The translations under genes and the position numbers were made by a program. Positions 34,733 to 49,914 of a DNA stretch of 64,000 nt are shown here, piece after piece. Under the pieces are notes generated by a model. That model did not search any database and was not told the DNA's origin. It saw only the letters and a program-made list of their open reading frames with translations. Location of the stretch: NCBI GenBank assembly GCA_034679465.1, contig JAXDAV010000032.1:59247-123246 (forward strand), written 5' to 3'. The stretch comes from Candidatus Aminicenantes bacterium (GTDB lineage: Bacteria > Acidobacteriota > Aminicenantia > Aminicenantales > Saccharicenantaceae). Each line of letters begins with the position of its first letter. Positions within the stretch are counted from its first letter, which is position 1.

Positions 34733-35887
34733 ATGGCCGTTTTCGTCATCATCGCGCTCAGCGTCTACGGCCTCGTCAACTTCTACATCATCCGCCGCGG
34801 CGCCCAAGCCCTGGCGCCCGTCCCTGGGGCCCGCACGGTCTTCCTCGTCCTCTTCATCGGCCTGGCGCTCCTCTTCCCGCTGGGCCGCATCCTCATGAGC
34901 TTCGCCCGGGGCGGCCTGGTCTCGCTCCTGGTCGAGGTGGGGACGTTCCACCTGGCCGTCATGCTCTACGGCTTCATGGCCGTGCTGGCCGTGGACCTCG
35001 TGCGCCTGGCCAATACGGTCGCGCGGATCCTGCCCGCGGGCCTGGCCGGCGGGGGGGCGAGGCCGGGTCCGGCCGTCTTCGCCGCCGTCGCGGGCGCCGT
35101 CGGCCTCACCGTCGCCTACGGGGCCTGGAACGCGACGCGCCTGCGGACCGTCGACCTCGACCTTCACCTTCCGGCCCAAGCGGGCGCCGCGGGCGCGCTG
35201 ACCGTGGTCGCGGCCTCCGACCTCCACCTCGGAACGATTGTGGGTCCGCGCCGCCTCGAGAAAGTCGTCGAGCGGATGGCCGCCCTCGGACCCGACGTCG
35301 TCCTCTTCGCCGGCGACATCGTCGACGAGACCGTGACCGATGAGATCGAAGCCAAGCTGGGCGGGATCATGCGCCGGCTCCGGGCGCCCCTGGGAGTCTT
35401 CGCCTGCCTGGGGAACCACGAGTCCTACAGCGGGCTCGAGAGGAACGTGGCCTGCCTCGAGTCCTGCGGCGTCACCGTCCTCCAGGACGAGGCGGTCGAG
35501 GTGGCCGGCGCGTTCGTCCTGGCCGGGAGAAGGGACCCGAGCTCACTCGCGGCCGGGGAGCGGCGGCTGTCCCTCCCGGACATCCTCTCCGGGAGCGGCG
35601 TCCGTCGGGACCTGCCCCTGGTCGTCCTCGACCACCAGCCGGTCCGCCTCGAGGAGGCCGAACAGGCCGGCGCCTCCCTCCAGATCTCCGGGCACACCCA
35701 CGACGGGCAGATGTTCCCCATCGATGTCATCAACAGCCTGATCTACGAGCTCAATTGGGGCTCGCTCGACAAAGGCGGCACCCGCTACTATGTGACGAGC
35801 GGCGCGGGAACGTGGGGGCCCCCGGTGCGGATCGGCAGCCGGGCCGAGGTTGTCCGCATCCGGCTCCATTTCGACCGGACGCCCTGA
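34733..35887 (+). CDS. membrane-anchored metallophosphoesterase (calcineurin-like)
   Basis: N-terminal TM helices followed by ASDLHLG...FAGDIVDE...GNHE...GHTHDG phosphoesterase motifs. Confidence 0.75.
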   Translation: MAVFVIIALSVYGLVNFYIIRRGAQALAPVPGARTVFLVLFIGLALLFPLGRILMSFARGGLVSLLVEVGTFHLAVMLYGFMAVLAVDLVRLANTVARILPAGLAGGGARPGPAVFAAVAGAVGLTVAYGAWNATRLRTVDLDLHLPAQAGAAGALTVVAASDLHLGTIVGPRRLEKVVERMAALGPDVVLFAGDIVDETVTDEIEAKLGGIMRRLRAPLGVFACLGNHESYSGLERNVACLESCGVTVLQDEAVEVAGAFVLAGRRDPSSLAAGERRLSLPDILSGSGVRRDLPLVVLDHQPVRLEEAEQAGASLQISGHTHDGQMFPIDVINSLIYELNWGSLDKGGTRYYVTSGAGTWGPPVRIGSRAEVVRIRLHFDRTP

Positions 35888-35914
35888 CGAAGCCGGGCGG
35901 AGAGAGTCGGGGAG

Positions 35915-36463
35915 CTACTTCTTGACCGGGGCGGCCGCGGCCTTGGACTGGTCGTAGCGGCGGACGACCTCGTCGGTGATGTCGATCGTCGGAGAGACGG
36001 TGACGACCCCGCTGTTCTGGGCGTCGAGGACGAGCTCGAGGCCGCGCTCCTTGGCCAGGGCCTCGATGATGGCGACCATCTCGACCTGGATCTTCTGAAG
36101 GACGTTGGCCGAGAGCTGTTGATAGTCGCGGGCCTGGTCCTCTTCGTAGCGCTTCCTCTTGGTCCTCTCTCTCTCGATGTCGGCCTGGAGGGCCATCAGG
36201 GCTTCGTTGGTCATCGTCAGCCGGCCCGTGTTCAGCCGGTTCTCGAGGAGCCGGATGGAGTCGTCCATCTTCTGGATATCGCCCTTGATCTTGGTTTCGC
36301 GTTCCGTCATCTGGTTCTGGGCCTTCTTGCCCTCGATCGAAGTCGCGAACGCCTTGGCCGAGTCGATGATGGCGATCTTGGCCGTCTGCTGGGCGTAGGA
36401 CGCCGCGGCGACGGCCAGGATGATCAAGACGGCAAGCGGCGCGACGGTCATCATTCTCTTCAT
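35915..36463 (-). CDS. OmpH/Skp family periplasmic chaperone
   Basis: Signal peptide and a coiled-coil-rich body typical of Skp/OmpH. Confidence 0.7.
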   Translation of the reverse strand: MKRMMTVAPLAVLIILAVAAASYAQQTAKIAIIDSAKAFATSIEGKKAQNQMTERETKIKGDIQKMDDSIRLLENRLNTGRLTMTNEALMALQADIERERTKRKRYEEDQARDYQQLSANVLQKIQVEMVAIIEALAKERGLELVLDAQNSGVVTVSPTIDITDEVVRRYDQSKAAAAPVKK

Positions 36464-36533
36464 GAGAGGCCTCCTATGGTCCTATTCCTTTGAACTCGTT
36501 CCGTCCAGGAATGGATTCGCTATCTTAGCACGA

Positions 36534-37646
36534 TTAGGCGATTTTTTTAAGTGTTTCGTCGATGCGCCCCAGGGCCCTCAGAAGATAGCCCTTCTCCGAG
36601 CCGTACCCGAAGCGCAGGTAGCCGTCCGTCTCGAAATGGTCGCCCGGGACGACGAGGACGCTCCTCTCCCGGATGAGGCGCTCGACGAGCTCGGTCGAAT
36701 TGGCCTCGAGGGCATACCCGGCGAAGCAAATGGCGCCCGCCTGGGGAGGCCGGAACTTGAACAGGCCTTCATGGTCGCCCAGCCACTTGGCCAGGACGGG
36801 GAAGTTGGCGTTCAGAATGCCGCGGGTCCGGCCGAGGACGCGCTCCCGGGTCCCCGGGGACAGGGCGATCGTGGCCAGCCTGTCGCTCAGGGCCGAGGGG
36901 GAGATGGTCGTGTAATCGTGATAGGGCCAAGTCCTCTTGACGATCTCTTTGGGGCCGACGATCCAGCCGACCCGCAGGCCCGGCAGTCCGTAGGCCTTGG
37001 ACAGGCCGTTGACGACGAGCGTCTTCTCCCACCGGCCCCAGAAGCTCGGGGTCGCGACCCCGGAGAGCTCGGCCCCCTGATAGACCTCGTCGGCCAGGAT
37101 CCAGGCGCCGGCCCGGGCGGCCAGATCGACGATGCCGGTCATGGATTCCGCGGAAAGGACCGAACCGGTCGGGTTGTTGGGATTGGTCAGGACGATGAGC
37201 TTGGTCTTCGGCGTGACCAGACGGCCCATCTCGTCGAGGTCGGGTTGCCAGCCCAGGCCCTCGCGGAGCCGGAAGGGCCTGACCTCGGCGCCGAAGGCCC
37301 GCAGCAGGCCGGCCATCTGCATGTAGTTCGGCAGCTCGAAGAGCACTTCGTCCCCGGGCTCGATGAGGCTCCACATGAGCAGGAAGTTCGCCTCCGACGA
37401 GCCGGCCGTGGCCAGGACCTGGTCCAGGCCGATGCCCGGGTAGAGACGGGCGATGCGCTCGCGGAGCGGGACCGTCCCGTTCGTCTGGGTGTAGCCGAGC
37501 TCGATCCCGGCGAGCTCGTCGATCTCGGCCGGAGTCAGGAGCTCCTTGAGGCTCAGGGGGTGGACGCCGCTCTCGGACAGGTTGTAGTCGACGACGTTCT
37601 CCCAGGTCGACTGCATGCGCTCCATCCTGAAGACGTCGATGTGCAT
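36534..37646 (-). CDS. pyridoxal phosphate-dependent aminotransferase, class I/II
   Basis: ...LTNPNNPTGSV... and the PLP-lysine region NGLSKAYGLPGLRVGW. Confidence 0.8.
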   Translation of the reverse strand: MHIDVFRMERMQSTWENVVDYNLSESGVHPLSLKELLTPAEIDELAGIELGYTQTNGTVPLRERIARLYPGIGLDQVLATAGSSEANFLLMWSLIEPGDEVLFELPNYMQMAGLLRAFGAEVRPFRLREGLGWQPDLDEMGRLVTPKTKLIVLTNPNNPTGSVLSAESMTGIVDLAARAGAWILADEVYQGAELSGVATPSFWGRWEKTLVVNGLSKAYGLPGLRVGWIVGPKEIVKRTWPYHDYTTISPSALSDRLATIALSPGTRERVLGRTRGILNANFPVLAKWLGDHEGLFKFRPPQAGAICFAGYALEANSTELVERLIRERSVLVVPGDHFETDGYLRFGYGSEKGYLLRALGRIDETLKKIA

Positions 37647-37668
37647 GGGGAAACCTCTCAGCGTGGAA

Positions 37669-38496
37669 TCAGATCTCGACTTTGAACACGCCCTTGAGGG
37701 CGAAGCCGAAGGCGATCGACAGGGCGAGGTAGGCGACGAGCCAGTGGACGCTCAGGCCGAAGGCCGAGAGGCTCTTGGCCGGATAGAGCACCTCGACGGT
37801 TCGGACGGGCGTCCCTTTGGGGAGGGGCGGCTCGCCCGGGTGGAGGAGCCTCTTCCAGAACGAGCCCCGGGAGGCCAGGGCCGAGACTTTGGTCAGGGTC
37901 CGGCCGCCCACGACGACCGACTTCTCGATCGCGAGCCCGCCCGTCCGCAGGAGAAGCTTGCCGTCGCCGGGAGCGAGGGCCTTGACCCGCCAGACGACCT
38001 CGCGCTCGTCGGGGACGCGGACGGCCGGCGCGGTGATCTCGAGGCCCGGCGGCGCTTCGAGCGCGAGGTCGAGCGTGACGGGGTCCGCGGTCCGTTCGAG
38101 ACCGGCCTTGACCAGCGTCTCCTCGCCCGGCCGGAGCGGGGCCCGGTCGAACCAGAGGCCGAGCTGGGCCAGGATGAGGACGAGCGGAACGATCATGACG
38201 GCCAGAGGCTTCAGATTGGCGGCCAGGTAGGCCAGATTGGCCCTGAGTACGGCCCCCTGGGCGGCCAGGGTGACGCGCATGTCGTCCTTGTAGAGGCGCA
38301 TCTCGTAGAGGTGAGCCTTGATCCGGTCCTTGGCCCGGCGGATGGCCGCCTGGTTCGAGGCGAGCTTGTAGACCTCGAGCATGAGCAGGGCCGTCAGGAG
38401 GGACACGGCCGCCATCCCGAACCAGGGCGAAAGGTCCCTGAACGGCAGAAGGACGAGGGCGACGGCCCGGCCGAAGACGAGGTTGACGATCGACAT
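37669..38496 (-). CDS. hypothetical membrane protein
   Basis: Several hydrophobic helices and no recognisable motif. 5-nt gap to the upstream RHH gene. Confidence 0.5.
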   Translation of the reverse strand: MSIVNLVFGRAVALVLLPFRDLSPWFGMAAVSLLTALLMLEVYKLASNQAAIRRAKDRIKAHLYEMRLYKDDMRVTLAAQGAVLRANLAYLAANLKPLAVMIVPLVLILAQLGLWFDRAPLRPGEETLVKAGLERTADPVTLDLALEAPPGLEITAPAVRVPDEREVVWRVKALAPGDGKLLLRTGGLAIEKSVVVGGRTLTKVSALASRGSFWKRLLHPGEPPLPKGTPVRTVEVLYPAKSLSAFGLSVHWLVAYLALSIAFGFALKGVFKVEI

Positions 38497-38501
38497 GGCG
38501 C

Positions 38502-38693
38502 TCAGCCGATGTAGCCCAGCCCCTTGAGCTTCTTCTTGATCTCCTCTTCCGAGTCCGCTTCCTCGATCTTGGCCACTTCCTTCTCGAGGCAGTGGCTGAC
38601 GAACTCCTCGACCGAAGAGTAGCCCGACAGCTCGGCGTATTTCTTGATCTTCCCGTACAGGGCCTTGTCGATGGCGACTTTCGCGCTGGCCAT
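38502..38693 (-). CDS. ribbon-helix-helix (CopG-like) small protein
   Basis: 63 aa (MASAKVAIDKALYGKIKKYAELSGYSSVEEFVSHCLEKEV...). Start at the internal ATG; the listed upstream extension is Arg-rich artefact. Confidence 0.45.
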   Translation of the reverse strand: MASAKVAIDKALYGKIKKYAELSGYSSVEEFVSHCLEKEVAKIEEADSEEEIKKKLKGLGYIG

Positions 38694-38713
38694 GGGGCTC
38701 TCCTTTCGACCCG

Positions 38714-40723
38714 TTATCCGAGGACGTTCCGGCCGGTCATGTCCCGGGGCTTTTCGACGCCGAAGACGCCGAGGACCGAGGCGGTCAGGTCCTCCAGGAC
38801 CGGGGCCTCGGCCGTGAACTTGCGGTTGGAGAAGGCGATGCCGGGCAGGACGTCCGGCGCGGACATGTGGTCGCCGCTCCACCTCTGGGTGTTGTTCTCG
38901 AGGACCTCCTGCGGGAAGCCGCCGAGAGGCGACTGCCACGAGATCCTGTAGCCGCGGTTGAAGCCGAGAATGATGTCAGGGGCCCGGTCCGCGTTCGCGC
39001 CCCTGTAGGCCTCTCTGGAGATGAACGCCTTGAGGATGGGGCGCTCTCCGGTCAGGGGGTCGGTCACGGCCTCGAGCTTCCGGGCGATCTCGCGGACGAG
39101 GTTGTCCTTGTCGGCGCCCGGGGCGACGATGCCCTCTCCCTCGCGCCCCTTCTCGTTGATGTAGAGGCTGTTGAGCCCGACGCCGTAGGCCCGGGACCTG
39201 GCCCAGTCGGAGTTGTCGAAGAGGGCCGACTCCTCCTGTTTCCAGGGCCTCTTCAGCCGGTGATAGCCCTCCCGGAGGAGCCAGGTATTGAGATTGAAGC
39301 CGCGGCGGAACGTGGCGAAGCCGTGGTCGGACATGGCCAGGACGACGGTGTCCTTGTCCGCCTTCCTCAGCGCCGCGTCGAGGGCCCGGTCCATCTCGCC
39401 GTATGTCCTGGCGATGACGTCGCCGAAGCGGGCGGCGAGCTTCTCGTCGTAGGCGGGGTGCCCGGGGTCGGTCAAGCGCCAGAACATGTGCTGGCGCTGG
39501 TCGGCGTTGGAGAAATAGAAGAACAGGAGGCCCTCGTCGAACCGGCCCAGCTCGTACTCGAGCATGGCCAGGCTCTCCTCATAGACCTTGTTGTCGAGCT
39601 CGAGGAACTCGGCCTCGTCGAGGATGCCGTTGTCGAGGGCGCTGGTGTCGGCGGGCAGGCCCTTGGTGAAGTAGGGCCCGAAGCGCTTCTCCAGCTCCCG
39701 GGCGTACGACTCCGGGGTGGAGAGGGGTAGGGCCGGCCGGGCCGGATCGATGTGGATGGGGGAGACGTAGAGCTTGAACTTCGGCCGGACCTCCTTGAGA
39801 TAAAAAAGGCACATGCCGTGGACGTTTTGGGTAGGAATGAGGGTGAAGCGGAGCCGGACCCAGCCGCTCCACTCCTTTTCCTTGAGCACGAATTCGTTCC
39901 CCTGGATTCGGATCTTGGCCGCCGCGTTCGAAGGGTCGATGAAGATCTGGAAGGGGATGGTGGTGTCCGGCCTGTCCGTTTTGAGGCTGTTGACGGGTCC
40001 GGGAAGCTCGGCCTCGACTCTGTTGCCGACGACATAGACGTCGTGGACCTCTCCGCCTCCCCCCGCTTCTTGGACCAGGCTCGGCGGATCGTCCGTGTAA
40101 TAGCGGAACCATCCGTATGTGCCCCTGATGTCGGGCGTGTTCATCCCGGCGAGCGTCCTCTGCTTCGTTTCCGCGGGCGGATAGTTGGTGGGCATCTTGA
40201 AGACCGTCGACGGCACGCCGGCGTCCTCGAGGATCTGCCAGAACGTTTTCCCCTTGCGCAGGCTCCGCACCCGTCCGCTCGAAAGCGGGATGAGGGTTTT
40301 GCCGAGCCGGACGGTCTTCCCGGCGCCCAAGGTCTCAGTCGAGGAGAAGACGGGGATGTACGTTTTCGGGTCGCGGTGGATGAAATCGAAGATGCCGTGA
40401 CCGCCGGGGCCCATGCCGGTGATGAAGTTCGACCAGGCCACGGGCGTTTGGGGCGGGAGGCTCGTGCCGAGCGGCCGGAAATCGCCGCCCTGGCGGAGGA
40501 GCTTGGCGAAAGCCGGGAGACGCCCTTCATCGATCCAGCGGCGGGTCAGGACCGGATCGAGGCCGTCGAGGCCGAGGACGATCATCCTGGTCGTCGTCCG
40601 GGCCTTGCCGTAAGCCTTGGGAACGAGGCGTGGGGCCCCGCCCAGGCCCAGCGCGGCCGAAGCCGCCACGCCCGCCTTGAGGAACTCCCGGCGGCTGAGG
40701 GCCGTCCGCTTGTGATCGCTCAT
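38714..40723 (-). CDS. alkaline phosphatase superfamily protein (type I phosphodiesterase/nucleotide pyrophosphatase-like), Tat-signal paralog A
   Basis: Tat signal LSRREFLKAGVAASAALGLGG. Core motifs VLGLDGLDP (N-terminal metal site) and AMSDHGF. Start at ATG 40723, which overlaps the paralog B stop (ATGA). Confidence 0.7.
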   Translation of the reverse strand: MSDHKRTALSRREFLKAGVAASAALGLGGAPRLVPKAYGKARTTTRMIVLGLDGLDPVLTRRWIDEGRLPAFAKLLRQGGDFRPLGTSLPPQTPVAWSNFITGMGPGGHGIFDFIHRDPKTYIPVFSSTETLGAGKTVRLGKTLIPLSSGRVRSLRKGKTFWQILEDAGVPSTVFKMPTNYPPAETKQRTLAGMNTPDIRGTYGWFRYYTDDPPSLVQEAGGGGEVHDVYVVGNRVEAELPGPVNSLKTDRPDTTIPFQIFIDPSNAAAKIRIQGNEFVLKEKEWSGWVRLRFTLIPTQNVHGMCLFYLKEVRPKFKLYVSPIHIDPARPALPLSTPESYARELEKRFGPYFTKGLPADTSALDNGILDEAEFLELDNKVYEESLAMLEYELGRFDEGLLFFYFSNADQRQHMFWRLTDPGHPAYDEKLAARFGDVIARTYGEMDRALDAALRKADKDTVVLAMSDHGFATFRRGFNLNTWLLREGYHRLKRPWKQEESALFDNSDWARSRAYGVGLNSLYINEKGREGEGIVAPGADKDNLVREIARKLEAVTDPLTGERPILKAFISREAYRGANADRAPDIILGFNRGYRISWQSPLGGFPQEVLENNTQRWSGDHMSAPDVLPGIAFSNRKFTAEAPVLEDLTASVLGVFGVEKPRDMTGRNVLG

Positions 40724-42846
40724 GACTCTTTCCCCTGTCGCATTCCGGCCAGCGCGGCGACGTCGACCAGGCCTTGCCCGTCCATGTGGGCCGGCGGCGC
40801 GATCCCGAAGAGCTCGAGGACCGTCGGGGCGAGGTCCATGATCGACGGCTCGGTCCGCGCGAGCCTGAGGCTGGAGAAGAGGACCCCGGGCACGAGCGCG
40901 GGATCGATGCAATGATCGCCGCTCCAGGCTTTGGTGTTGTCCTCGATGACGGTGTCGTCGACGATGCCCGTGACCCCGTCCCAGGAGGCCCGATAGCCCT
41001 CGTTGTAGCCGATGAGGAGGTCCGGGGCGTTGTCCTTGTAGGGGCCGGCGTAGATGGCTTCGCGGTCGTAGACGCGCGTGATCGCGGCCGGGCCGTTCGG
41101 CCCGTCCCTGAGGGCGGCGAGCTTCGACGCCAGCTCGGCCTTGAGCGCCGCCGCCTCGTTTCCCGGTTCGACCGTCCCCCGGGCCTCGCGGCCCCTGAGA
41201 TTGAGATAGACGCCGCCGAGGCCGAGGCCGTAGGCCTTCGTCCGGTCCCAATCGACGTCCTTGAACCACTCGCCGCTGTCGGTCTGGCCCGCGGCCAGGG
41301 CCAGGTAGCCGTTCCGGTGGAGCCACGAATTGAGGTTGACGCCCCGCCGGAAGGACTTGAAGCCGTGGTCGGACATGACGAAGAGGACGTCCTTGGGGCC
41401 GAGGTCCGCGGCGACCCGGCCGACGAGGCCGTCCATTCTTTTATAGAGGTCCTCGATGACGGCCGCGCTCAGCCGGGCCGGGGCCGCCTCGAGGGCCGGG
41501 TGGGACTTGTCGAGATAGCGGAAGAACATGTGCTGGACGCTGTCGGTCGTCTCGAAGACGATCGCGACCAGGCCGCGCGGCGTCCTGGCCAGGGCGTTCC
41601 CGAGCAGGGCCTCCCATTCGGCGTGGTTCGCGTAGGTCAGCTCGAGGAAGGCCTTTTCGTCGAGCGCCCCTTCGTTGAGGGCCCAGGTGTCGTTGGCCTC
41701 GCCGAGGGTGGTGAAGCGGCCGAGGAGCTTGGCCAGATAGACGGAGTAGATGAAGGGATGCGAGATCGGCAGGGCGGGCCTCTCCGGATCGATGTTGAGA
41801 GGCGTCACGTACATCTCGAACCGGGGCTCGAGCGCGGCGATGCGGAAGCGGCAGGCGCCCCGGACCTTCGTGCCCAGGCCGGCCTTGAAAGCGACCGGGG
41901 TCCAGGGGCTGAAGGTCCTCTCTTTCAGGAAGAACTCCTTCGACCCCTGGATTCGGAGCCGGGCCCCGCCCTTGTCCTTGTCGATGGTGATCGTCAGGGG
42001 CAGGAGGATCTCGGCGGGCTTCTTGAGCAGGGAGTTCTCGGGGCCGGAGATGGCGGTCTTGATGACCGACCCTTCCCGGCGGACGAGGACGGCGACGCCG
42101 CCTTCGTGCTTGCGGACCTTCTCGGCGTCCTCGGTGAAGAGCGCGAACGTCCCCTGACTGCCCTTGAGGTCCGGGGCGCACATGCCGGACAGAAGGCGCC
42201 CCTTGAATCTTTCGGGCGGGAAGGTGATCGGCACCCTCAGGACGGTCGAAGCGATCCCCTTGTCGCCGAGGATCTTCCAGAACGGGACGCTCTTCCGCAG
42301 GCCGCGGATCTCGGGCTTGGAGAGCGGGACGACGTACCTGCCCAGGGTGAGCGTCCGCTTCGGCCTGCCGATGCGGGCCGAGGACAGGTCGGGGAGGTAG
42401 GTCCGGGGGTCGCGGCTGAGGAAATCGAAGATATTGTGCTTGGACGGCTCGGCGCCGGTCATGAACGACGACCAGGCCACGGGCGAGATGGCCGGCGTCG
42501 TCGTCCGCAGACGGGAGTAGGTCCCTTCCTTTTTGAGCCGGGCCAGGTTCGGCAGCTTCCCCTCGGCCATGAACCTCTCCGCGAGCGTCGGCTCGAGGCC
42601 GTCGAGGCCGAGGACGACGAGCCGATCGACCGGGCTCGTCCGGTAGGCCCGTCGTCCCCGGATCGCCTTCCAGGCGAACCGGAAGGGCCAGGACAGGAAT
42701 GAGAACAAGGCCAGCAGCAGGGTCAGGAAGAGGATGAGGAAGGAGGACAGGAAGGCGAACCCGGCCCCGGGGCCGATATAGCCCAGCAGGGGGGAGGCCA
42801 GGGCCAGTCCGAGGGTCGCCGCGACGAGGAGGCCCGATTTCTTCAT
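40720..42846 (-). CDS. alkaline phosphatase superfamily protein, membrane-anchored paralog B
   Basis: Two N-terminal TM helices, then VLGLDGLEP...VMSDHGF. Clear paralogy with A across the full length. Confidence 0.7.
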   Translation of the reverse strand: MKKSGLLVAATLGLALASPLLGYIGPGAGFAFLSSFLILFLTLLLALFSFLSWPFRFAWKAIRGRRAYRTSPVDRLVVLGLDGLEPTLAERFMAEGKLPNLARLKKEGTYSRLRTTTPAISPVAWSSFMTGAEPSKHNIFDFLSRDPRTYLPDLSSARIGRPKRTLTLGRYVVPLSKPEIRGLRKSVPFWKILGDKGIASTVLRVPITFPPERFKGRLLSGMCAPDLKGSQGTFALFTEDAEKVRKHEGGVAVLVRREGSVIKTAISGPENSLLKKPAEILLPLTITIDKDKGGARLRIQGSKEFFLKERTFSPWTPVAFKAGLGTKVRGACRFRIAALEPRFEMYVTPLNIDPERPALPISHPFIYSVYLAKLLGRFTTLGEANDTWALNEGALDEKAFLELTYANHAEWEALLGNALARTPRGLVAIVFETTDSVQHMFFRYLDKSHPALEAAPARLSAAVIEDLYKRMDGLVGRVAADLGPKDVLFVMSDHGFKSFRRGVNLNSWLHRNGYLALAAGQTDSGEWFKDVDWDRTKAYGLGLGGVYLNLRGREARGTVEPGNEAAALKAELASKLAALRDGPNGPAAITRVYDREAIYAGPYKDNAPDLLIGYNEGYRASWDGVTGIVDDTVIEDNTKAWSGDHCIDPALVPGVLFSSLRLARTEPSIMDLAPTVLELFGIAPPAHMDGQGLVDVAALAGMRQGKES

Positions 42847-44138
42847 CAGAAATTCTTGAGGATGAGGGGGGCGACGTCGGCGATCTGGAGCGAGTCGCCG
42901 TGGTCCTCCGCGGCCCAGAAGAAGGCGTCGTCCCAGGTGTGCATGCCCTGGAGACCGGGCCGGCCGAAGACGTCTTTTCGCCTCACCGAGCCCTTCATGT
43001 CGAACCCGGGCTCGCCGACGACGATGAGGTCAGGGCCCTTGGCCGCGTGCGGGCCCGAGTAGACCTCCTCGGCGAAAAAGACCTTGCGGACGACCCGGCG
43101 GCCGCCGTAGTGGAGCTTGGCCAGCTTGCCGGCGATCTCCTCCTTGAGGGCCTTGCGGGCCGACCGTTCGACCGAGCCCTTGGGGAACCTGTTCTTGGCG
43201 TTGAGGTAGATCCGATTGGGATCGAGCGCGAAGGCGCGGGTGCGGCCGTGGATGTCCTCGAGCGATTCGGGCTCGGGTTTGAGGAACTTCAGATAGCCGT
43301 TCTTCTCCAGCCAGGCGTTGAGGTAGACCTCCGCGTCCGTGCCGGTGGAGCCGTGATCGGACAGGATGTAGAAGCCGGCGTAGGTGTTGGCGATCTTGTG
43401 GTAGGCGGCGACGATCTTGCCGATGAGGCGGTCGATGTGCCGGTAAAAGTCGAGAAAGCCCTGGTGGAAGGGATGGGCCGGGTCCTCGTAGGCCCGCCAG
43501 AGGAAATGGTGGAGGCGGTCGGTCCCGGTGACGACGAACTCGAAGTAATCCCAGCCTTCCTCCCAGAAGAAGTTCAGCGCTTTCTGGCCTCCGGCCATGG
43601 TCTTGCTGAGCTCCAGCCAGAGGACCTCGGGCCTTTCCCGGCACTTGAGGATGTCGACGTCGATCTGGTAGCCCATCTGCTCGAGGACGGCCCGGTAGGA
43701 CATCGGCCAGACCGCCTTGGCCAGCTCCAGGGCGACGAAGCCGGAGATGAGGGCCCCGTCGACCTTGCGGGCGGGGTAGGTCGAAGGCTGGTTGATGATG
43801 ATGCTCTTTTTCCCCTTGGCCCCGAGCCGGTCCCAGATGGTCGGGGCCTTGACGTCGAGGAAGTTGGGGAAACGGACGGCGTAGGACTTGGCCTTGAAGT
43901 CGGTGAAGCCGAAGATGCCGTGGGTCCCGGCGTTCGTCCCGGTCATGAAGTCGGTCCAGGACACCGAGGAGACCTCGGGCAGGCTGGCCCTCATCTTGTG
44001 GATCTTGCCGATATCCATGAGCCGGGCCATGGTCGACATGACCCCGCGCTGGGCCAGCTCGACGATCATCCCGTAAGGAACGCCGTCAAGGCCGATGACG
44101 CAGGCGCGATTGGTCTTTTTGGGCTTGGGGACGGCCAT
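42846..44138 (-). CDS. alkaline phosphatase superfamily protein, short cytoplasmic paralog C
   Basis: No signal peptide. VIGLDGVPY...ILSDHGS core only. Start at the ATG encoding MAVPKPKK. The TGATG stop/start overlaps paralog B. Confidence 0.65.
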   Translation of the reverse strand: MAVPKPKKTNRACVIGLDGVPYGMIVELAQRGVMSTMARLMDIGKIHKMRASLPEVSSVSWTDFMTGTNAGTHGIFGFTDFKAKSYAVRFPNFLDVKAPTIWDRLGAKGKKSIIINQPSTYPARKVDGALISGFVALELAKAVWPMSYRAVLEQMGYQIDVDILKCRERPEVLWLELSKTMAGGQKALNFFWEEGWDYFEFVVTGTDRLHHFLWRAYEDPAHPFHQGFLDFYRHIDRLIGKIVAAYHKIANTYAGFYILSDHGSTGTDAEVYLNAWLEKNGYLKFLKPEPESLEDIHGRTRAFALDPNRIYLNAKNRFPKGSVERSARKALKEEIAGKLAKLHYGGRRVVRKVFFAEEVYSGPHAAKGPDLIVVGEPGFDMKGSVRRKDVFGRPGLQGMHTWDDAFFWAAEDHGDSLQIADVAPLILKNF

Positions 44139-44256
44139 GACAGCTCGTTTCCTTCCAGAACTGACTATTTTACCGCAAGATACGGGCCCGGTCAAACGAC
44201 CCATTGACTTCGGCCGGCCGCAGGCGTTAAATGGGGGCTAAAAAAAAGAGGTCACC

Positions 44257-45657
44257 ATGACAGGATCCGAAAGGCTCCGCGGCCGTCTGGTCCGCGAATA
44301 CGAGAAAAAGACCGTCCGCAGCCGGGCGATGTTCCGGCGGGCCGGGAAGGTCATGATCGCCGGGGGGAGCCACACCATCCGGCTCTGGCGCCCGCACCCC
44401 TTTTTCGCCGTCTCGGCGGACGGCCCGATCGTCCGGGACGTCGACGGCAACGCCTACATCGACTATTGGCAGGGTCACTACGCCAACGTCCTCGGCCACA
44501 ACCCCCGGCTCATCCGCAGCCGGATCGCGCCCTCGCTCGAGCGCGGCGCCCTGCACACCGGATTCGAGGCCGCCCATCAGATCGAGCTGGCCGAGGCGCT
44601 CATCCGCGGTCTCGGCGGCCGCGACGCCAAGGTCCGCTTCACCACCTCGGGCACCCTGGCCACCATGTACGCGATCATGATGGCCCAGGGGCTGACGGGC
44701 CGGGACCACGTCCTCAAGGTCGGGGGCGGCTGGCACGGCGCTTCCCCCTACCTGCTGAAGGGCGTCAAGCATCACGGCCCGGACGGCTTTGAGGGCCGGG
44801 AATCGGCCGGGGTCCTCGAAGACATCTTCCGGAGGACGCTCATCACCCGGTTCAACGACGTCGCCGACCTCGAGCGGGTCATCGGCGAGCACGGGGACCG
44901 CATCGCCTGCTTCATCGTCGAGCCCTTCCTCGGCGTCGGCGGCTTTCTCGCGGCCTCGAAGGCCTATCTCGAGACTGCCCGCCGCCTGACGGCCCGGCGC
45001 GGCATCCTTCTCATCCTGGACGAGATCATCTCGGGGTACCGCTTCTGCCCGGGCGGGGTCCAGGGGCTCTACGGCGTCCGGCCGGACCTGACGACGGTCG
45101 GCAAGGTCATCGGCGGCGGCCACGCCGTGGCCGCGGTGGTCGGGCCGCGCGAGATCATGGAGGAGTGCGAGCGCGGCCGCGGCGGCGGCACGCGCGTCTA
45201 TTTCGAGGGCGGGACGTTCTCGGCCCACGCCGAGTACATGAAGGCCGGGCTGATCATGCTCGGCCATCTCGCCGGCCACGCCGCGACGGTCTATCCGAAG
45301 CTGGCCCGCGCCGGCGAGCGGCTGCGCCGCGGGATCGAGCGCGTCTTCGCCGAGGCCGGCATCGAGGCCCGCTGCACCGGCGACGGGAACGAGGTCGTCC
45401 CCGGCAGCTCGCTCTTCATGGTCCATTTCCCGCGGCGCCCCGGGACGGCCTACGACCGTCCCGAGGACATCCATGACGCCGAACGGTCGAACCTGGCCCT
45501 ACGGGAGGACCTGTTGAAGCTGGCCCTGCTCGTCAACGGCGTCAACGTCGTCCACGGCGGCGGCGCGGTCTCCGCGGCCCACGGGCCGAAGGAGATCGAG
45601 GCGACGATCGCCGCCTACGGGGAAGCGGCCCGGCTGTTCGGCCGCTACCTGGACTGA
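44257..45657 (+). CDS. class III aminotransferase (glutamate-1-semialdehyde aminomutase-like)
   Basis: HemL-like ...DVDGNAYIDYWQGHYANVLGHN... and the PLP-Lys region TTVGKVIGGG. Confidence 0.75.
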   Translation: MTGSERLRGRLVREYEKKTVRSRAMFRRAGKVMIAGGSHTIRLWRPHPFFAVSADGPIVRDVDGNAYIDYWQGHYANVLGHNPRLIRSRIAPSLERGALHTGFEAAHQIELAEALIRGLGGRDAKVRFTTSGTLATMYAIMMAQGLTGRDHVLKVGGGWHGASPYLLKGVKHHGPDGFEGRESAGVLEDIFRRTLITRFNDVADLERVIGEHGDRIACFIVEPFLGVGGFLAASKAYLETARRLTARRGILLILDEIISGYRFCPGGVQGLYGVRPDLTTVGKVIGGGHAVAAVVGPREIMEECERGRGGGTRVYFEGGTFSAHAEYMKAGLIMLGHLAGHAATVYPKLARAGERLRRGIERVFAEAGIEARCTGDGNEVVPGSSLFMVHFPRRPGTAYDRPEDIHDAERSNLALREDLLKLALLVNGVNVVHGGGAVSAAHGPKEIEATIAAYGEAARLFGRYLD

Positions 45658-45664
45658 CGCTTAT

Positions 45665-48373
45665 CTACCTCTTCAGCTCGAACATGTAGGCGCCGCTGCC
45701 GACCTTGAAGGCAACGCGCTTCCTGTCGTCCCCGGCCGGGTCGATCTCCGGGACCGGATCGACCGCGTGCCCGGCGCGCCAGAGGAGCTTCCCCGACTCG
45801 AGGATCCTGGCCCCGGGCCAGAGCAGGGGGACATGGACCTCGCCGGTCGCGCCGACGGGGACCGTGACTTCGAGCGAAAGCCCGTCCCCGGCCAATCTCC
45901 ACGACGCTTCGACCCGGCCGGCGACCGTGTCCAGCCGGGCCTCGACGAACGTGAGGTCTCCGAGGACGTGGGGCCGGAACCGGACCGCCCTCCAGCCCGG
46001 GAGGAGAGGGGAGAGCCCGGCCAGGACGCGATAGAACCAGCCGTCGACGGCGCCGAGCATGACGTGGTTCTGGGAGTTCATGGCCTGCCCGGTCAGCTTC
46101 TCCCAGCGCTCCCAGAGGGTCGTGGCGCCTTCGGCCAGCATATAGCCCCAGCCGGGATAGCTTTTCTGCGTGGCCGTGCGGTAGGCGGCCTCCGCTTGGC
46201 CGGCCTCGGTCAGGACGTCGAGGATATAGCGCGTCCCGAGGATCCCGGTGTCGACGTGATAGTCCTGCTGGCGGACGACGCTCTGGACGAGGCTGGCCAC
46301 GACCTTGTCCTTCCTGTCCGCCGGGACCATGTCCAGGTAGAGAGGCAGGGCGTTGGAGGTCTGGTTCGGGTAGGTGTCCACGGGGCTGACGCGGATGGCC
46401 GCGTATTGGGTCTCGCCGAGGTAGGCCCCGTTGAAGGCCGCTTTGACGGACTCGGCCAGCCGGGCGTACTGCTGGGTCTCCTCGGCCCGGCCGAGCACGG
46501 AGGCGAGGCGGGCCAGGATGAGCACGTCGTGGTAGTAATACCAGGTCGAGGTCAGGTCCACGGGCGTCTTCTTGGGCACGATCCCGCCGGGGGGGCACCA
46601 GTCGCCGTACTTGCCGAGGGAGCGGATGAGGCCCCGGTCCGCGTTCCGGCCGAGATAGTCGATGTAGCGCTTCAGGCTCCCGTAGTGGGCGGCGACGAGG
46701 CCGCGGTCGCCGTAATGGTCCCAGAGGAGCTCGACGAGCGTGGCATAGGCCGAGCTCCAGGCCGGGTCGGCGGGGTAGAGGCGCGGGAGATAGGGCGGCA
46801 CGACGTCGGGGAGGCTCCCGTCGTCCTTCTGGGCCAGACGGATGTCGTCGAGGAACTTGGCATAGAAGGCCGCCATGTTGAAGTTGAACACGGCCTCTTC
46901 GGCCGAGAGATGGGCGTCGCCGAGCCAGCCGTGCCGCTCGTCGCGCTGGGGGCAATCGGTGGGGATGCTCATGAGGTTCGAGAGCTGGCCCCAGAGGACG
47001 TTCCCGTGGATGGCGTTGACCAGCTCGCTCGACGTGCGGAGCTCGCCCGCGGGCTCGACGTCCGAATGGACGAAACGGCCCTCGAGGGCGTCGGGTCCGG
47101 GCTCGCCGGGGTACCCGGTCATCTCGACGTAGCGGAAGCCGTGGTAGGTGAACCGGGGCTCGTGGACCTCGGGCCCGCCCCCGCGCAGGATATAGATGTC
47201 GGTGGCCTCGGCGTTCTCGTTGGGCCCGAAGTTGAGCGTCCCGTCCTCGTGGAGGAGCTCGGCGTGGCGGAGGCGGACCTCCGTGCCCATCGGCCCCTCG
47301 ACGTTCAGCCGGGTCCAGCCGGAGAAGTTCTGCCCGAAGTCGAAGACGGCGGCCCCGGAGGAGAGCCGGCGGACCGACCGCGGCGCGAGCGTTGCGGCGA
47401 CCCGGACCGGGGGCATCATCTGGGAGACCAGAGGGTATCCGGCGCAGGAGACGGCCTTGTCCCAGGCCCGGTCGTCGAACCCCGGCTGGTCCCAGCCGTC
47501 GATGAGGATCCGGGCGTCGTACCGTTCGCCGTAATACAGGCCGTTCTCCTGCAGGGGACCGTTCGACGTCCTCCATCTCTCGTCGGAGAACAAGACCCGC
47601 CGCTCGCCGCTCTCGGACTCGATCTCGATGCGGCAGGTGAGCTTGGGCGCGTCGTAGCCGTAGCTCCGGATGTGGCGGCCGTTGCCGAGGATGACGCCGA
47701 CGGCGTTCTTGTCGCGGAGGAGGCCGGTCACGTCGTGGGAGGCATAGAGGGCCTTCTTCCCGTAGTCCGTCCAGCCCGGATCGAGGACGCTCGTCCCGAC
47801 CTTCGCCCCGTTCAGGCGCAGCTCGTAGTGGCCGAGGCCGGAGATGAAGATCATGGCCAGGGCGGCCCGGTCCCTGCAGGCGAATTCGTGCCGGAAGTAG
47901 ACCGCGCAGGCCTGGCTGTCCTCGGGGCCCGGGTGGCCGAGGAGGACCGTTCCCTTGGAGCGGAACTCCGTGACGCGCCGCGCGGCGATCCACTTCGGCT
48001 TCCAATCGCCGGGGTTGAGGAACCCCGTCACGAACGACGCCGGCTCGCTCCACGGGCTGACCCGGCCTTCGCGGTCCCGCCAGCGGACCTTCCAGAAGTA
48101 CCGGGCGCAGCTCGAGAGGGGCTCGCCCCGGTATTCCAGGGCCGGGGCCCCGTCCCCTTCGATCAGGCCCGTGTCCCAGAAGTCGCCGATATCGCTCCGG
48201 AGGAGCTCCTCCGCGGACGAGACGAGGACGTGGAGGCCTTTCGGGCGGTCGCCCCGGACCGGGCTCTCGACGACCCACGAAAGCCGCGGCGAAGCGGTAT
48301 CGACGCCGAGCGGTTCGTCGAGATATTGACAGCGGAGGCGGGCGGGGGGGCGCGGCGTCATGGCGGACCTCAC
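45665..48373 (-). CDS. alpha-L-rhamnosidase (glycoside hydrolase family 78)
   Basis: N-terminal ...RLSWVV...KGLHVLVSSAEEL... and overall GH78 architecture (about 900 aa). Confidence 0.75.
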   Translation of the reverse strand: MRSAMTPRPPARLRCQYLDEPLGVDTASPRLSWVVESPVRGDRPKGLHVLVSSAEELLRSDIGDFWDTGLIEGDGAPALEYRGEPLSSCARYFWKVRWRDREGRVSPWSEPASFVTGFLNPGDWKPKWIAARRVTEFRSKGTVLLGHPGPEDSQACAVYFRHEFACRDRAALAMIFISGLGHYELRLNGAKVGTSVLDPGWTDYGKKALYASHDVTGLLRDKNAVGVILGNGRHIRSYGYDAPKLTCRIEIESESGERRVLFSDERWRTSNGPLQENGLYYGERYDARILIDGWDQPGFDDRAWDKAVSCAGYPLVSQMMPPVRVAATLAPRSVRRLSSGAAVFDFGQNFSGWTRLNVEGPMGTEVRLRHAELLHEDGTLNFGPNENAEATDIYILRGGGPEVHEPRFTYHGFRYVEMTGYPGEPGPDALEGRFVHSDVEPAGELRTSSELVNAIHGNVLWGQLSNLMSIPTDCPQRDERHGWLGDAHLSAEEAVFNFNMAAFYAKFLDDIRLAQKDDGSLPDVVPPYLPRLYPADPAWSSAYATLVELLWDHYGDRGLVAAHYGSLKRYIDYLGRNADRGLIRSLGKYGDWCPPGGIVPKKTPVDLTSTWYYYHDVLILARLASVLGRAEETQQYARLAESVKAAFNGAYLGETQYAAIRVSPVDTYPNQTSNALPLYLDMVPADRKDKVVASLVQSVVRQQDYHVDTGILGTRYILDVLTEAGQAEAAYRTATQKSYPGWGYMLAEGATTLWERWEKLTGQAMNSQNHVMLGAVDGWFYRVLAGLSPLLPGWRAVRFRPHVLGDLTFVEARLDTVAGRVEASWRLAGDGLSLEVTVPVGATGEVHVPLLWPGARILESGKLLWRAGHAVDPVPEIDPAGDDRKRVAFKVGSGAYMFELKR

Positions 48374-48444: not shown

Positions 48445-49914
48445 CTACAGGCCCGAGGAGGCGGAGGCCTGGGCCAGGAAGTAGTCGGCGACTTCGATGC
48501 CGTACTTGGCCGGGTCGAGGGCGGTCGCGATCGTCCGCTTGAACCGGCCCGTGGCGTCGTCCCGCTCGGTCAGGTCGACCGTCCCGCCGTCGAACTTGCG
48601 GCCCGTCGCGTCGGTGATGAGCTTGACCGCGGGCCGCAGGACGAGCTTGGGGTCGGGGTTGAGGTCCAGGACGATGCCGAGCTCTCCGGTCGTCAGGGCC
48701 ACCAGTGTGCCGATGGGGAAGATGCCCATCATGTTGACGAAGGCCTTGAGGATGACCGGGTTGAACTCCGTGCCGCTCTGCTCGAGCATGAGGCTCAGGG
48801 CCTCGGCCCGGGTGAAGTCCTTGGCCCGGTAGACGCGCTTGGTGGTGATGGCGTCGAAGACGTCGACGACCTTGACGATCTTGCTGAAGAGATTGACGTC
48901 GCCCTTCCGGAAATAGCGCGGGTAGCCGGACAGGTCCTCCTTGATATGGTGCTCGAGGGCGACGTGGATGGCCCGCAGGGGCAGGCGCCGGAACTCCTGG
49001 AGGAGGGCCAGCTTCTCGGCGCCGTGGAAGGGGTGCTTTTCCATGATGTCGCGCTCGGCCTCGGTCAGGCGGCCCGGCTTGTTCAGGATCTCGAGCGGCG
49101 TCTCGGTCTTGCCCAGGTCGTGGAAGAAGGCGGCCATGCCCAGGTCGACGAGCTCGGCTCGGCTCAGGCCGAGCCGGCGGCCGAGCGCTGTCGCCAGCAG
49201 GCAGACGTTGACGGAATGGTTGAGCGTGTACTCGTCGTGGTTCTTGATGTTGGTCAGGCCGTGGACGAAGCCCTCGTCCTCGACGATGTGGTTGTAGATC
49301 GACTGCATGAGGCGCCGCGTCGTGCTGATCTTGATGGGCTCGTTGCGCTGGTCGCGGCCGAACGACTCCTTGAGGTGGACGATGCTGAGGAAGAACAGCC
49401 GGGCCGAGCTCTGATGGATCCCCTGCGGGATCTCCTCGTCGGAGATCTTCTCCAGCCCGACGTTGCGGACGCCGGCCGCGTCGAGGTCGGCCAGGAGCTG
49501 GGCGTAGCCGTCGGCGTCCTTCTTCTCGCGCTTGGCGAAGACGGACATGAAGGCGAGGAGCTCGTCCCGGGTCAGGCCCGGCAGGAAATCGATCGCCTCG
49601 ACGTTCCGGGTGCGGAATTCCTCGATCGCCGCCTTGAACATGCCGTAGGTCCCGACGCCGAACTTGAGCCGGACGCCGTTCATGAGCAGGACGCCCTGAC
49701 GGACGCGCAGGGACGCTTCGCCGGCGTCCTTGAGGACGGCCGAGAGACTGTCGAAGAAGAGACGGCCCTGCTCCTGGAAGGCGTCGTTGCGGGTGTCGTA
49801 GATCTTGGCGATCTTGTCCACGATGTGGAACCGGGTGAGGAGCTCGACGCCGGCCCTCTGGAAGGCCTTGGCTTCGGCCCCGGTCGCTGGCTTGGGGATG
49901 CTTTTTTCGTCCAT
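48445..49914 (-). CDS. HD-GYP domain c-di-GMP phosphodiesterase
   Basis: HD motif (FFHDLGK) and HHxxxDGxGYP (EHHIKEDLSGYP). Confidence 0.8.
   Translation of the reverse strand: MDEKSIPKPATGAEAKAFQRAGVELLTRFHIVDKIAKIYDTRNDAFQEQGRLFFDSLSAVLKDAGEASLRVRQGVLLMNGVRLKFGVGTYGMFKAAIEEFRTRNVEAIDFLPGLTRDELLAFMSVFAKREKKDADGYAQLLADLDAAGVRNVGLEKISDEEIPQGIHQSSARLFFLSIVHLKESFGRDQRNEPIKISTTRRLMQSIYNHIVEDEGFVHGLTNIKNHDEYTLNHSVNVCLLATALGRRLGLSRAELVDLGMAAFFHDLGKTETPLEILNKPGRLTEAERDIMEKHPFHGAEKLALLQEFRRLPLRAIHVALEHHIKEDLSGYPRYFRKGDVNLFSKIVKVVDVFDAITTKRVYRAKDFTRAEALSLMLEQSGTEFNPVILKAFVNMMGIFPIGTLVALTTGELGIVLDLNPDPKLVLRPAVKLITDATGRKFDGGTVDLTERDDATGRFKRTIATALDPAKYGIEVADYFLAQASASSGL

Follow-up and report, generated by a model that had tools for sequence, protein, structure and literature searches.

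A conserved bacterial module of NPP-fold enzymes, an RHH-like protein and a DUF106-like membrane protein, with a possible role at the cell envelope

In the 64,000-nucleotide stretch of Candidatus Aminicenantes DNA analysed here (positions 59,247 to 123,246 of contig JAXDAV010000032.1, called the window below), three tandem paralogs of the alkaline phosphatase (AlkP) superfamily, C, B and A, head a minus-strand operon that continues with a ribbon-helix-helix-like (RHH-like) protein, a membrane protein (MP), a class I/II aminotransferase (AT1) and an OmpH/Skp-like protein (Skp). Comparison with other genomes points to a different grouping: B, A, the RHH-like protein and MP stay together across at least eight phyla, and these four genes, as judged from their adjacency, are the functional unit. 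MP is, by sequence and predicted topology, a bacterial homolog of the archaeal DUF106/Ylp1 proteins of the Oxa1/YidC superfamily, and B and A are predicted to be held on opposite sides of the inner membrane. As the best general model for the module we propose, tentatively and with somewhat less than an even chance, a two-sided relay whose substrate would be an envelope precursor of the sulfo- or phospho-ester type. What is observed directly is the gene composition of the module; its chemistry is inferred.

A four-gene module conserved across phyla

The window has a GC content of about 67% and its proteins find their closest matches in metagenome-assembled genomes (MAGs) of Candidatus Aminicenantes. 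For the comparison, genomes were scanned with an alignment of B-type proteins, keeping one genome per species, and the open reading frames (ORFs) of the 80 resulting loci were then searched with the window proteins. The scan was seeded on the N-terminal motif of B and hence selects B-type loci. Adjacency was counted at loci that extend 5.5 kb or more to either side of B, i.e., 17 Aminicenantes-like loci and 31 loci from other phyla (about 48 in total, from at least eight phyla). The other phyla include Terriglobia and other Acidobacteriota, Dadabacteria, Planctomycetota, Calditrichaceae (Calditrichota-like), Eiseniibacteriota, Longimicrobiales (Gemmatimonadota), Myxococcota and Tritonobacter, names that were taken from record titles in which some MAG labels look doubtful.

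All 17 Aminicenantes-like loci carry the RHH-like gene, MP and A beside B, and the same neighbours are found in 31, 30 and 28, respectively, of the 31 loci from other phyla. It is because of these counts that B, A, the RHH-like protein and MP are taken to form the unit. Two gene orders, B-A-RHH-MP and A-RHH-MP-B, are seen, with B-RHH-MP in a few loci, which implies that the linkage has outlasted rearrangement. A reciprocal scan of metagenomes seeded on MP found B (with its motif), A and the RHH-like gene upstream in 26/26 informative contigs, most of them of the Aminicenantes type.

The remaining genes of the operon behave differently. C is adjacent to B in 17/17 Aminicenantes-like loci and in one complete locus of the 31 outside this group, so that the triplet of paralogs, to which an earlier note on this DNA had drawn attention, is not conserved as such; C is a lineage-specific addition, a short and predictedly cytoplasmic paralog that has come to lead the operon in Aminicenantes. 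The same note had listed AT1, Skp and a divergent class III aminotransferase (AT3) as neighbours of the enzymes. Even among Aminicenantes-like loci, these genes adjoin B in 12, 8 and 5 of 17 cases (AT1, AT3 and Skp, respectively), and they are found in 0/31 loci of other phyla. On this conservation pattern, their presence is plain synteny and they are not functional partners.

The catalytic family of C, B and A

C, B and A are NPP-type (nucleotide pyrophosphatase/phosphodiesterase) members of the AlkP superfamily, COG3379, and all three match Pfam PF01663 well above its cutoff of 23 bits: C with 109.6 bits (E=3.3e-31) in a single stretch, residues 13-403, and B and A with 120.9 bits (E=1.2e-34) and 114.9 bits (E=8.1e-33), each in two stretches. 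The alignment of A with B covers 624 aa at 40% identity, and C aligns to A and B in two blocks at 25-32% identity. The seven metal-ligand and nucleophile positions of NPP-type enzymes (D82, S/T121, D435, H439, D493, H494 and H645 in the numbering of B) are intact in A, B and C and are invariant across 22 diverse homologs (35-54% identity), position 121 being Thr rather than Ser in A. The nucleophile contexts across the three enzymes are I-S-P-V-A-W, Q-T-P-V-A-W and V-S-S-V-S-W. The shared metal-site core and single catalytic fold that had been noticed from the sequence are thereby upheld. Because a complete NPP-type two-metal site and a Ser/Thr nucleophile are kept, all three enzymes are likely to be active, probably as phospho- or sulfo-ester transferases or hydrolases.

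B and A also have in common an insertion of about 160 aligned residues, or about 200 by length difference, which is smaller than the roughly 250 aa first estimated. C lacks the parts corresponding to B residues 158-184 and 233-363, and the insertion is all-beta in the AlphaFold2 model of B (pLDDT 71, pTM 0.74). A Foldseek search with this model ranked the Xanthomonas NPP (Xac NPP) best (E=2e-7), together with ENPP1 and PhnA (probability 1.00, E ~1e-7), and ENPP6 and ENPP7 were also among the structural neighbours. Hence, NPP/ENPP enzymes and PhnA share with the window enzymes the PF01663 family and the seven catalytic positions and are the closest structural neighbours of the B model; they differ in that their identity to B in structural alignments is 11-18%, that B and A carry the additional beta-rich insertion, and that B is predicted to be membrane-tethered and to face the cytoplasm. 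In sequence searches, the family profile reaches ENPP1, the Xanthomonas NPP, PhnA and iPGM weakly (E 1e-5 or worse), and neither B nor C had a PDB match in phmmer searches.

C, B and A are thus PF01663 members that belong to no characterised subfamily, and the possibility that they would fall into a known orthologous group was not borne out. An assignment to PhnA and phosphonate catabolism was considered and rejected: against the TIGR02335 equivalog, which has a cutoff of 407.55 bits, the three proteins score 17.1, 27.7 and 16.8 bits over their N-terminal 70-75 residues only, and the aminotransferases are not conserved partners. Formylglycine sulfatases were likewise rejected, as none of the three matches PF00884 or contains the C/S-x-P-x-R nucleophile motif. 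The family itself is large, with 17,929 representative clusters (50% identity) of COG3379/PF01663 proteins at E<=1e-3, and JGI labels it "predicted AlkP superfamily phosphohydrolase/phosphomutase". No characterised COG3379 member or solved structure was found. A literature search on COG3379, "AlkP superfamily phosphomutase", PF01663 and bacterial DUF106 gave nothing on this module, the one PF01663 match being the unrelated ebo cluster.

Predicted location of the three enzymes

The three paralogous ORFs overlap in tandem at 38714-44138 on the minus strand, as had been described. C (42846..44138, 430 aa) is a short-form enzyme without the insertion. No hydrophobic segment was found in it by hydropathy, in agreement with the reported lack of a signal peptide, and its orthologs are 430-431 aa long. 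C would therefore be soluble in the cytoplasm.

B (40720..42846, minus strand, 708 aa) is a long-form enzyme with the beta-rich insertion, which is predicted to be tethered to the membrane with its catalytic domain in the cytoplasm. Its identity to orthologs is 75-91% within Aminicenantes and 52-57% for those of other phyla. The segments at residues 6-24 and 30-48 are hydrophobic, a feature kept in orthologs outside Aminicenantes, and they had been read as two N-terminal transmembrane (TM) helices. Although both segments are conserved, hydropathy and alignments indicate that the first one resembles a signal peptide and that a single TM helix follows. In 51 orthologs, the N-terminus consists of a basic n-region, a hydrophobic h-region and a c-region with Pro at -4 to -6, followed by a cleavage-like site in which -1 is Ala in 49/51 and -3 is Leu or Ala in 47/51. 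The alignment is invariant at Y23, G25, P26, G27, A28, G29, F30 and A31. After the Y(I/V)GPGAGF sequence come 25 uncharged residues and then 20 residues averaging 7.5 Lys/Arg versus 0.6 Asp/Glu in the same 51 orthologs. Residues 1-68 (42643..42846, minus strand) thus comprise a signal-peptide-like helix, an (L/A)-x-A|Y site, the conserved Y(I/V)GPGAGF, a TM helix and an Arg/Lys cluster.

As the strong Lys/Arg cluster follows the second hydrophobic segment, the enzyme domain of B is predicted to be oriented towards the cytoplasm. B would then start with a signal peptide that looks cleavable; 8-9 residues (YIGPGAGFA) would form an exoplasmic N-terminus, and a single TM helix would lead to the catalytic domain on the cytoplasmic side. 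If the signal were left uncleaved, a hairpin with the same orientation would result. It is worth mentioning that the octapeptide between the signal-peptide-like helix and the TM helix (window 42691-42846 for B residues 1-52) is invariant and is predicted to be the sole exoplasmic part of B.

A (38714..40723, minus strand, 669 aa) is the exported long-form enzyme. Its residues 1-39 (40607..40723) read as a twin-arginine (Tat) signal, SRREFLKAGVAASAALGLGGA, in which an S/T-R-R-x-F-L-K motif (here SRREFLK) is followed by a mildly hydrophobic h-region and an A-Y-G cleavage-like site. The Tat signal that had been proposed for A passes TIGR01409 (18.4 bits, cutoff 16.7) and its RR motif is kept in Aminicenantes orthologs; the Pfam TAT_signal family PF10518 is matched below its gathering score (19.9 bits, E=6.6e-4, against 22.7). 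In other phyla, the orthologs of A carry, in place of the Tat signal, a lipoprotein signal of the Sec type that includes a lipobox Cys. The A type is accordingly predicted to be exported throughout, with Tat as the route here and a lipoprotein form elsewhere. The idea that C, B and A form a series from cytoplasm to membrane to periplasm survives in part: C is predicted to be cytoplasmic, B tethered to the inner membrane and A exported, but the catalytic domain of B would lie on the cytoplasmic side.

The membrane protein, a bacterial DUF106/Ylp1 homolog

MP (37669..38496, minus strand, 275 aa) starts 5 nt past the stop codon of the RHH-like gene. The window copy has no Pfam match. Among 24 diverse orthologs, 10 match PF01956 (EMC3_TMCO1) in the part that spans TM1, the coiled coil and TM2, and one of these 10 exceeds the gathering score (30.5 bits vs 27.1). 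JGI names many orthologs "DUF106 family". A profile built from MP orthologs has a sole match in the PDB, the archaeal Mj0480 (5c8j, Ylp1), with E=1.6e-9 between residues 5-124 and 6-133; the match of TM3 is weak. The AlphaFold2 model of MP is confident (pLDDT 90.6, pTM 0.81) and begins with a helix that precedes TM1. A helical hairpin rich in Lys and Arg forms the TM1-TM2 loop, and a beta domain (about 130 residues) separates TM2 from TM3; helices are at residues 24-46, 49-68, 73-116 and 252-267. Foldseek matched the beta domain alone, which is Ig/filamin-like.

On the basis of the model, the coiled coil of MP would be cytoplasmic and the Ig-like domain, between TM2 and TM3, periplasmic. MP therefore resembles Ylp1, EMC3 and TMCO1 in profile homology over TM1, the coiled coil and TM2 (weakly over TM3), in the predicted layout of three TM helices with a cytoplasmic coiled coil, and in a conserved Trp at the start of TM3. 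It differs from them in being bacterial, in being the product of an enzyme operon and not of a housekeeping gene, and in holding the Ig-like domain in its TM2-TM3 loop; an insertase role of MP is putative. The DUF106 family has been described as archaeal and eukaryotic (PMC5868721; 10.1101/2020.12.20.422553), and no description of a bacterial DUF106 clade was found in the literature.

Proteins that need YidC/Oxa1 only are simple ones, with few TM helices and with small regions to be translocated (PMC5868721). The anchor of B fits this type because it has few TM helices and a small translocated part. In particular, B resembles M13 procoat and other YidC-only substrates in its build: a signal peptide comes first, the translocated segment is very short, and the single TM helix has positive charges on its cytoplasmic side. 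Unlike them, B runs on into a cytoplasmic enzyme of about 640 aa, and both its cleavage and its dependence on the DUF106-like protein are predictions.

The RHH-like protein and its C-terminal tail

The 63-aa RHH-like protein (38502..38693, minus strand) is present in all complete loci and is more conserved than the enzymes, with a mean column identity of 65% across phyla. Its assignment is a weak one: 11/24 orthologs, at best with E=4e-4, match PF01402 (RHH_1) and the window copy does not, and a PDB profile search with the orthologs returned weak matches, among them NikR at E=0.92. A classical autoregulator acting on a conserved operator was considered and rejected, since about 22 regions upstream of C show the promoter boxes only, without a conserved palindrome. 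An anti-phage defence function was also discarded, as PADLOC models gave zero matches at E<=0.01 against five proteins.

The C-terminal tail of the protein, EEADSEEEIKKKLKGLGYIG (38505..38564, minus strand), consists of an acidic linker, an amphipathic stretch and an invariant L-x-G-L-G-Y. Residues L56, G58, L59, G60 and Y61 do not vary, and the last residues read L-x-G-L-G-Y-(I/L)-x. The same tail, "...EEE..(K/R)L(K/R)xLGY(I/L/V/M)x", in which an acidic part is followed by a basic amphipathic part and LGY, also ends unrelated proteins whose genes adjoin the module in other phyla; within the window it is found on the RHH-like protein only. The tail is carried by the adenosine 5'-phosphosulfate (APS) kinase CysC in loci L039, L059, L077 and L087 and by CysD in L034 and L081 (NF003587, 349 bits, cutoff 195), i.e., by CysC or CysD in six loci. 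Several PF00884 sulfatase-family proteins, one PF01663 protein and small TPR-like proteins of Planctomycetota have it as well. Tail-bearing ORFs include L039:5550-6158, L059:18859-19506, L077:15281-15976, L034:7042-8031, L081:15527-16330 and L079:7223-9871. About 19 non-RHH ORFs with the tail were counted, against about 0.5 expected by chance in a rough estimate that uses approximate residue frequencies.

Short C-terminal peptides of this kind are familiar as docking signals, as in the cargo-loading peptides of encapsulins and the EEVD tails of Hsp70/90 that are bound by TPR domains. By analogy, the LGY tail is short, conserved and C-terminal, follows a flexible acidic linker and is shared by unrelated enzymes of one neighbourhood; unlike the case of encapsulins, no shell protein is present here. 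TPR domains can bind C-terminal peptides. In Terriglobia, a fusion of a PF00884 sulfatase-family domain with TPRs is encoded divergently from A-RHH-MP-B in nearly every locus (L045:5129-7078, minus strand; equivalents in L047-L073), and this fusion could be a receptor for the LGY tail.

Association with sulfate activation in other phyla

Genes for sulfate activation lie within 10 kb of the module in ten distinct loci. The order is CysD-CysN-C-B-A-RHH-MP in L034, B-A-RHH-MP-CysD-CysN-C-like in L081 and Sat-C'-CysC-C-B-RHH-MP in L039, and Sat/CysC are near the module in L042, L050, L059, L077 and L087. Two non-homologous kinds of ATP sulfurylase, CysDN or Sat (the latter with CysC), are therefore found beside the module, and especially beside C-type genes, which directly adjoin CysN or CysC in five lineages. 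One of these C-type genes, L087:10991-12337, lies between CysC and a family 4 glycosyltransferase (GT4) gene and is 36% identical to the window C over its full length. Outside Aminicenantes, the module is often followed by an S-adenosylmethionine (SAM) methyltransferase and then by Sat/CysC, C-like PF01663 genes (448 and 462 aa), GT4 and polysaccharide-type genes. The context in other phyla, as far as gene neighbourhoods can tell, points to activated sulfate rather than to amino groups.

Canonical sulfotransferase families were absent from the called genes of four annotated loci. A role in the remodelling of sulfolipid (sulfoquinovosyldiacylglycerol, SQDG) was examined and rejected: the neighbouring epimerase of the short-chain dehydrogenase/reductase (SDR) type scores 59 bits against 575 for UDP-sulfoquinovose synthase (SqdB), and the GT4 is stp2/EpsE-like, of the exopolysaccharide (EPS) type. 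In two loci (L085:11691-13550 and L086:6251-8161), the methyltransferase is followed by a protein of 619-636 aa without a Pfam or NCBIfam match, beside a heparinase II/III-like protein and a GT4.

Models for the function of the module

The idea of a relay is a reasonable model for these predicted locations. In the relay on a sulfo- or phospho-ester precursor that we favour, C and/or B would take up a nucleotide-activated group in the cytoplasm, which in other phyla would most likely be derived from APS or 3'-phospho-APS (PAPS). B, at the inner leaflet, would hand the group to a membrane-bound intermediate, and the exported A would use or trim it at the outer face. The DUF106-like MP would either insert the procoat-like anchor of B or bridge B and A, as a conduit or scaffold, through its coiled coil and Ig-like domain, and the LGY tail would dock the RHH-like protein onto the membrane machinery, as it would CysC, CysD and sulfatase-like proteins in other phyla. 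A more specific proposal, which we regard as doubtful, is that of an undescribed and widespread envelope system in which a DUF106 homolog and NPP-fold enzymes on both faces of the inner membrane consume APS/PAPS, the AlkP-fold enzymes forming a new class of sulfo- or phosphosulfo-transferases that act via a membrane-bound intermediate and the LGY tails docking CysC, CysD, sulfatase-like and RHH-like proteins.

Several points weigh against these proposals. An NPP-type site is expected to attack the phosphorus, not the sulfur, of APS or PAPS, and a literature search found no COG3379 member with a known substrate. No sulfate-activation gene is within reach in the window, nor in nearly all Aminicenantes loci, hence the link to sulfate may not apply here, and sulfate chemistry is much less probable for this window than the general relay. 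No lipid carrier or acceptor for the relay was identified. Among tail-bearing proteins, CysC and CysD are cytoplasmic and some sulfatase-like proteins look exported, so that a single docking partner in one compartment cannot account for all tails. Finally, the topologies of C, B, A and MP rest on hydropathy, hidden Markov models (HMMs), conservation and AlphaFold2 modelling, and the B model is moderately confident around the nucleophile loop.

Known systems offer partial parallels to the proposed relay. EptA/MCR-1, OpgB, LtaS, BcsG and the eukaryotic glycosylphosphatidylinositol (GPI) phosphoethanolamine transferases are membrane-bound AlkP-superfamily enzymes with a Ser/Thr nucleophile; at the membrane surface, they take a phospho head group from a lipid and transfer it to an acceptor in the envelope. 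Their catalytic domains have the superfamily and the nucleophile in common with the enzymes described here. However, their anchors are multi-pass, their catalytic domains lie outside the cytoplasm and the bacterial members mostly belong to PF00884, whereas the module combines an enzyme with one TM helix and a predicted cytoplasmic domain (B) with a separate exported paralog (A). The GtrA/B/V and ArnC/E-F/T systems are similar by analogy only, as each pairs a cytoplasm-facing enzyme with a small membrane protein and a periplasm-facing enzyme, but from entirely different protein families.

Among the alternatives, the turnover of lipid head groups fares best, while still being unlikely. B at the inner leaflet and A at the outer leaflet would act like phospholipases C or D, as ENPP2, ENPP6 and ENPP7 do, and MP would be no more than the dedicated insertase of B. 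This agrees with the membrane attachment of B and A on opposite faces, with ENPP6 and ENPP7 being structural neighbours of the B model and with the likeness of the B anchor to YidC-type substrates. It leaves C, the RHH tail and the linkage to CysDN and Sat-CysC unexplained, however, and no lipid-synthesis partner was found, the SQDG version having failed.

Phosphate scavenging is slightly less likely again. Three Pho-type phosphodiesterases or nucleotide pyrophosphatases would free phosphate from organic phosphorus, with incidental neighbours, a role that would suit a family (PF01663) including NPPs and the alkaline phosphatase PafA and an export by Tat or as a lipoprotein that is typical of periplasmic phosphatases. 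Yet for two of the three enzymes, C and B, the predicted site of action is the cytoplasm, pst and pho genes are absent from the annotated neighbourhoods, and a strict linkage to RHH-like and DUF106-like proteins across phyla would not be expected.

The direct contact of C-type genes with CysN or CysC could also reflect the control of sulfonucleotide pools, in which the enzymes would hydrolyse APS, PAPS or 3'-phosphoadenosine 5'-phosphate (PAP) in a CysQ-like or NPP-like manner, without transfer. NPPs do cleave nucleotide phosphoanhydrides. This explanation is nevertheless improbable, since A is exported and the periplasm has no sulfonucleotides, a housekeeping hydrolase needs neither a tether nor a DUF106-like partner, and the window has no sulfate-activation genes. 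The least probable is the earlier note's own version of the relay, in which the two aminotransferases would build or modify an amino- or phosphonate-containing envelope component in a PhnA/PhnW-like manner: weak PhnA-like matches, the PhnA structure among the Foldseek matches and the adjacent aminotransferases of the window speak for it, but the PhnA scores are 17-28 bits vs 407, the aminotransferases are missing from 31/31 loci of other phyla and from some Aminicenantes loci, and AT1 (class I/II) and AT3 (class III) are unlike PhnW, which is of class V.

As far as the literature shows, the combination of components in the four-gene module is undescribed, and there is a real chance of new chemistry. 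Whichever substrate applies, two COG3379/PF01663 members are now tied to a fixed four-gene module, which gives the family its first testable functional frame, made up of defined predicted topologies, an Oxa1-superfamily partner and a recurrent linkage to sulfate activation. A dedicated bacterial DUF106 clade within an enzyme operon would be a natural system in which to study the function of a minimal three-TM Oxa1-type protein. The LGY tail common to several unrelated proteins is suggestive of a docking code by which enzymes of sulfate activation would be connected to machinery in the membrane.

Operon head and lineage-specific neighbours

A sigma70-like promoter, TTGACC-17-TAAAAT (44167..44195, minus strand), lies just upstream of the C start codon and is the sole promoter-like match within 35500-44400. 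In an alignment of about 22 upstream regions, TTGAC..TAtAAT boxes occupy the equivalent position 5' of C in about 20 Aminicenantes loci. As this promoter falls inside a longer alternative ORF, it supports the start of C at 44138. In many Aminicenantes loci (window 44139-44200; L003-L027), the -10 box ends about 10-30 nt before the C start, which suggests that the leaders upstream of C are very short. The stop/start overlaps that had been reported were confirmed by reading the sequence: C and B overlap by 1 nt (ttcTGATGaag) and B and A by 4 nt (tcATGAgc), so that C, B and A are translationally linked at the head of the operon. A strong ribosome-binding site, AAGGAG, precedes the RHH-like gene. 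A terminator scan gave no excess over the shuffled expectation.

The neighbours of the enzymes are those that had been listed from the sequence, i.e., the 63-aa protein, the 275-aa membrane protein, AT1, OmpH/Skp and the divergent AT3, of which the last three are the lineage-specific ones. AT1 (36534..37646, minus strand, 370 aa) matches PF00155 (E=6.7e-48), and its best NCBIfam matches, PRK07324, GntC (260 bits, cutoff 415) and VioD (240 bits), are all under cutoff. AT3 (44257..45657, plus strand), a HemL-like class III aminotransferase, matches PF00202 (E=4e-38) and scores 266 bits against a cutoff of 527 for TIGR00713 (HemL) and 187 bits against 525 for GntE. Guanitoxin-pathway enzymes are thus among the better NCBIfam matches of both aminotransferases, all well under cutoff, and neither protein is HemL or another named aminotransferase. 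The OmpH/Skp-like periplasmic chaperone (35915..36463, minus strand, 182 aa) matches PF03938 (E=1.8e-22). Next to the cluster, an alpha-L-rhamnosidase of family GH78 with five Pfam domains is encoded at 45665-48373 (minus strand), followed by an ORF at 48445-49914 (minus strand) whose ortholog in L001 is annotated as an HD-domain protein; both are in synteny within Aminicenantes only.

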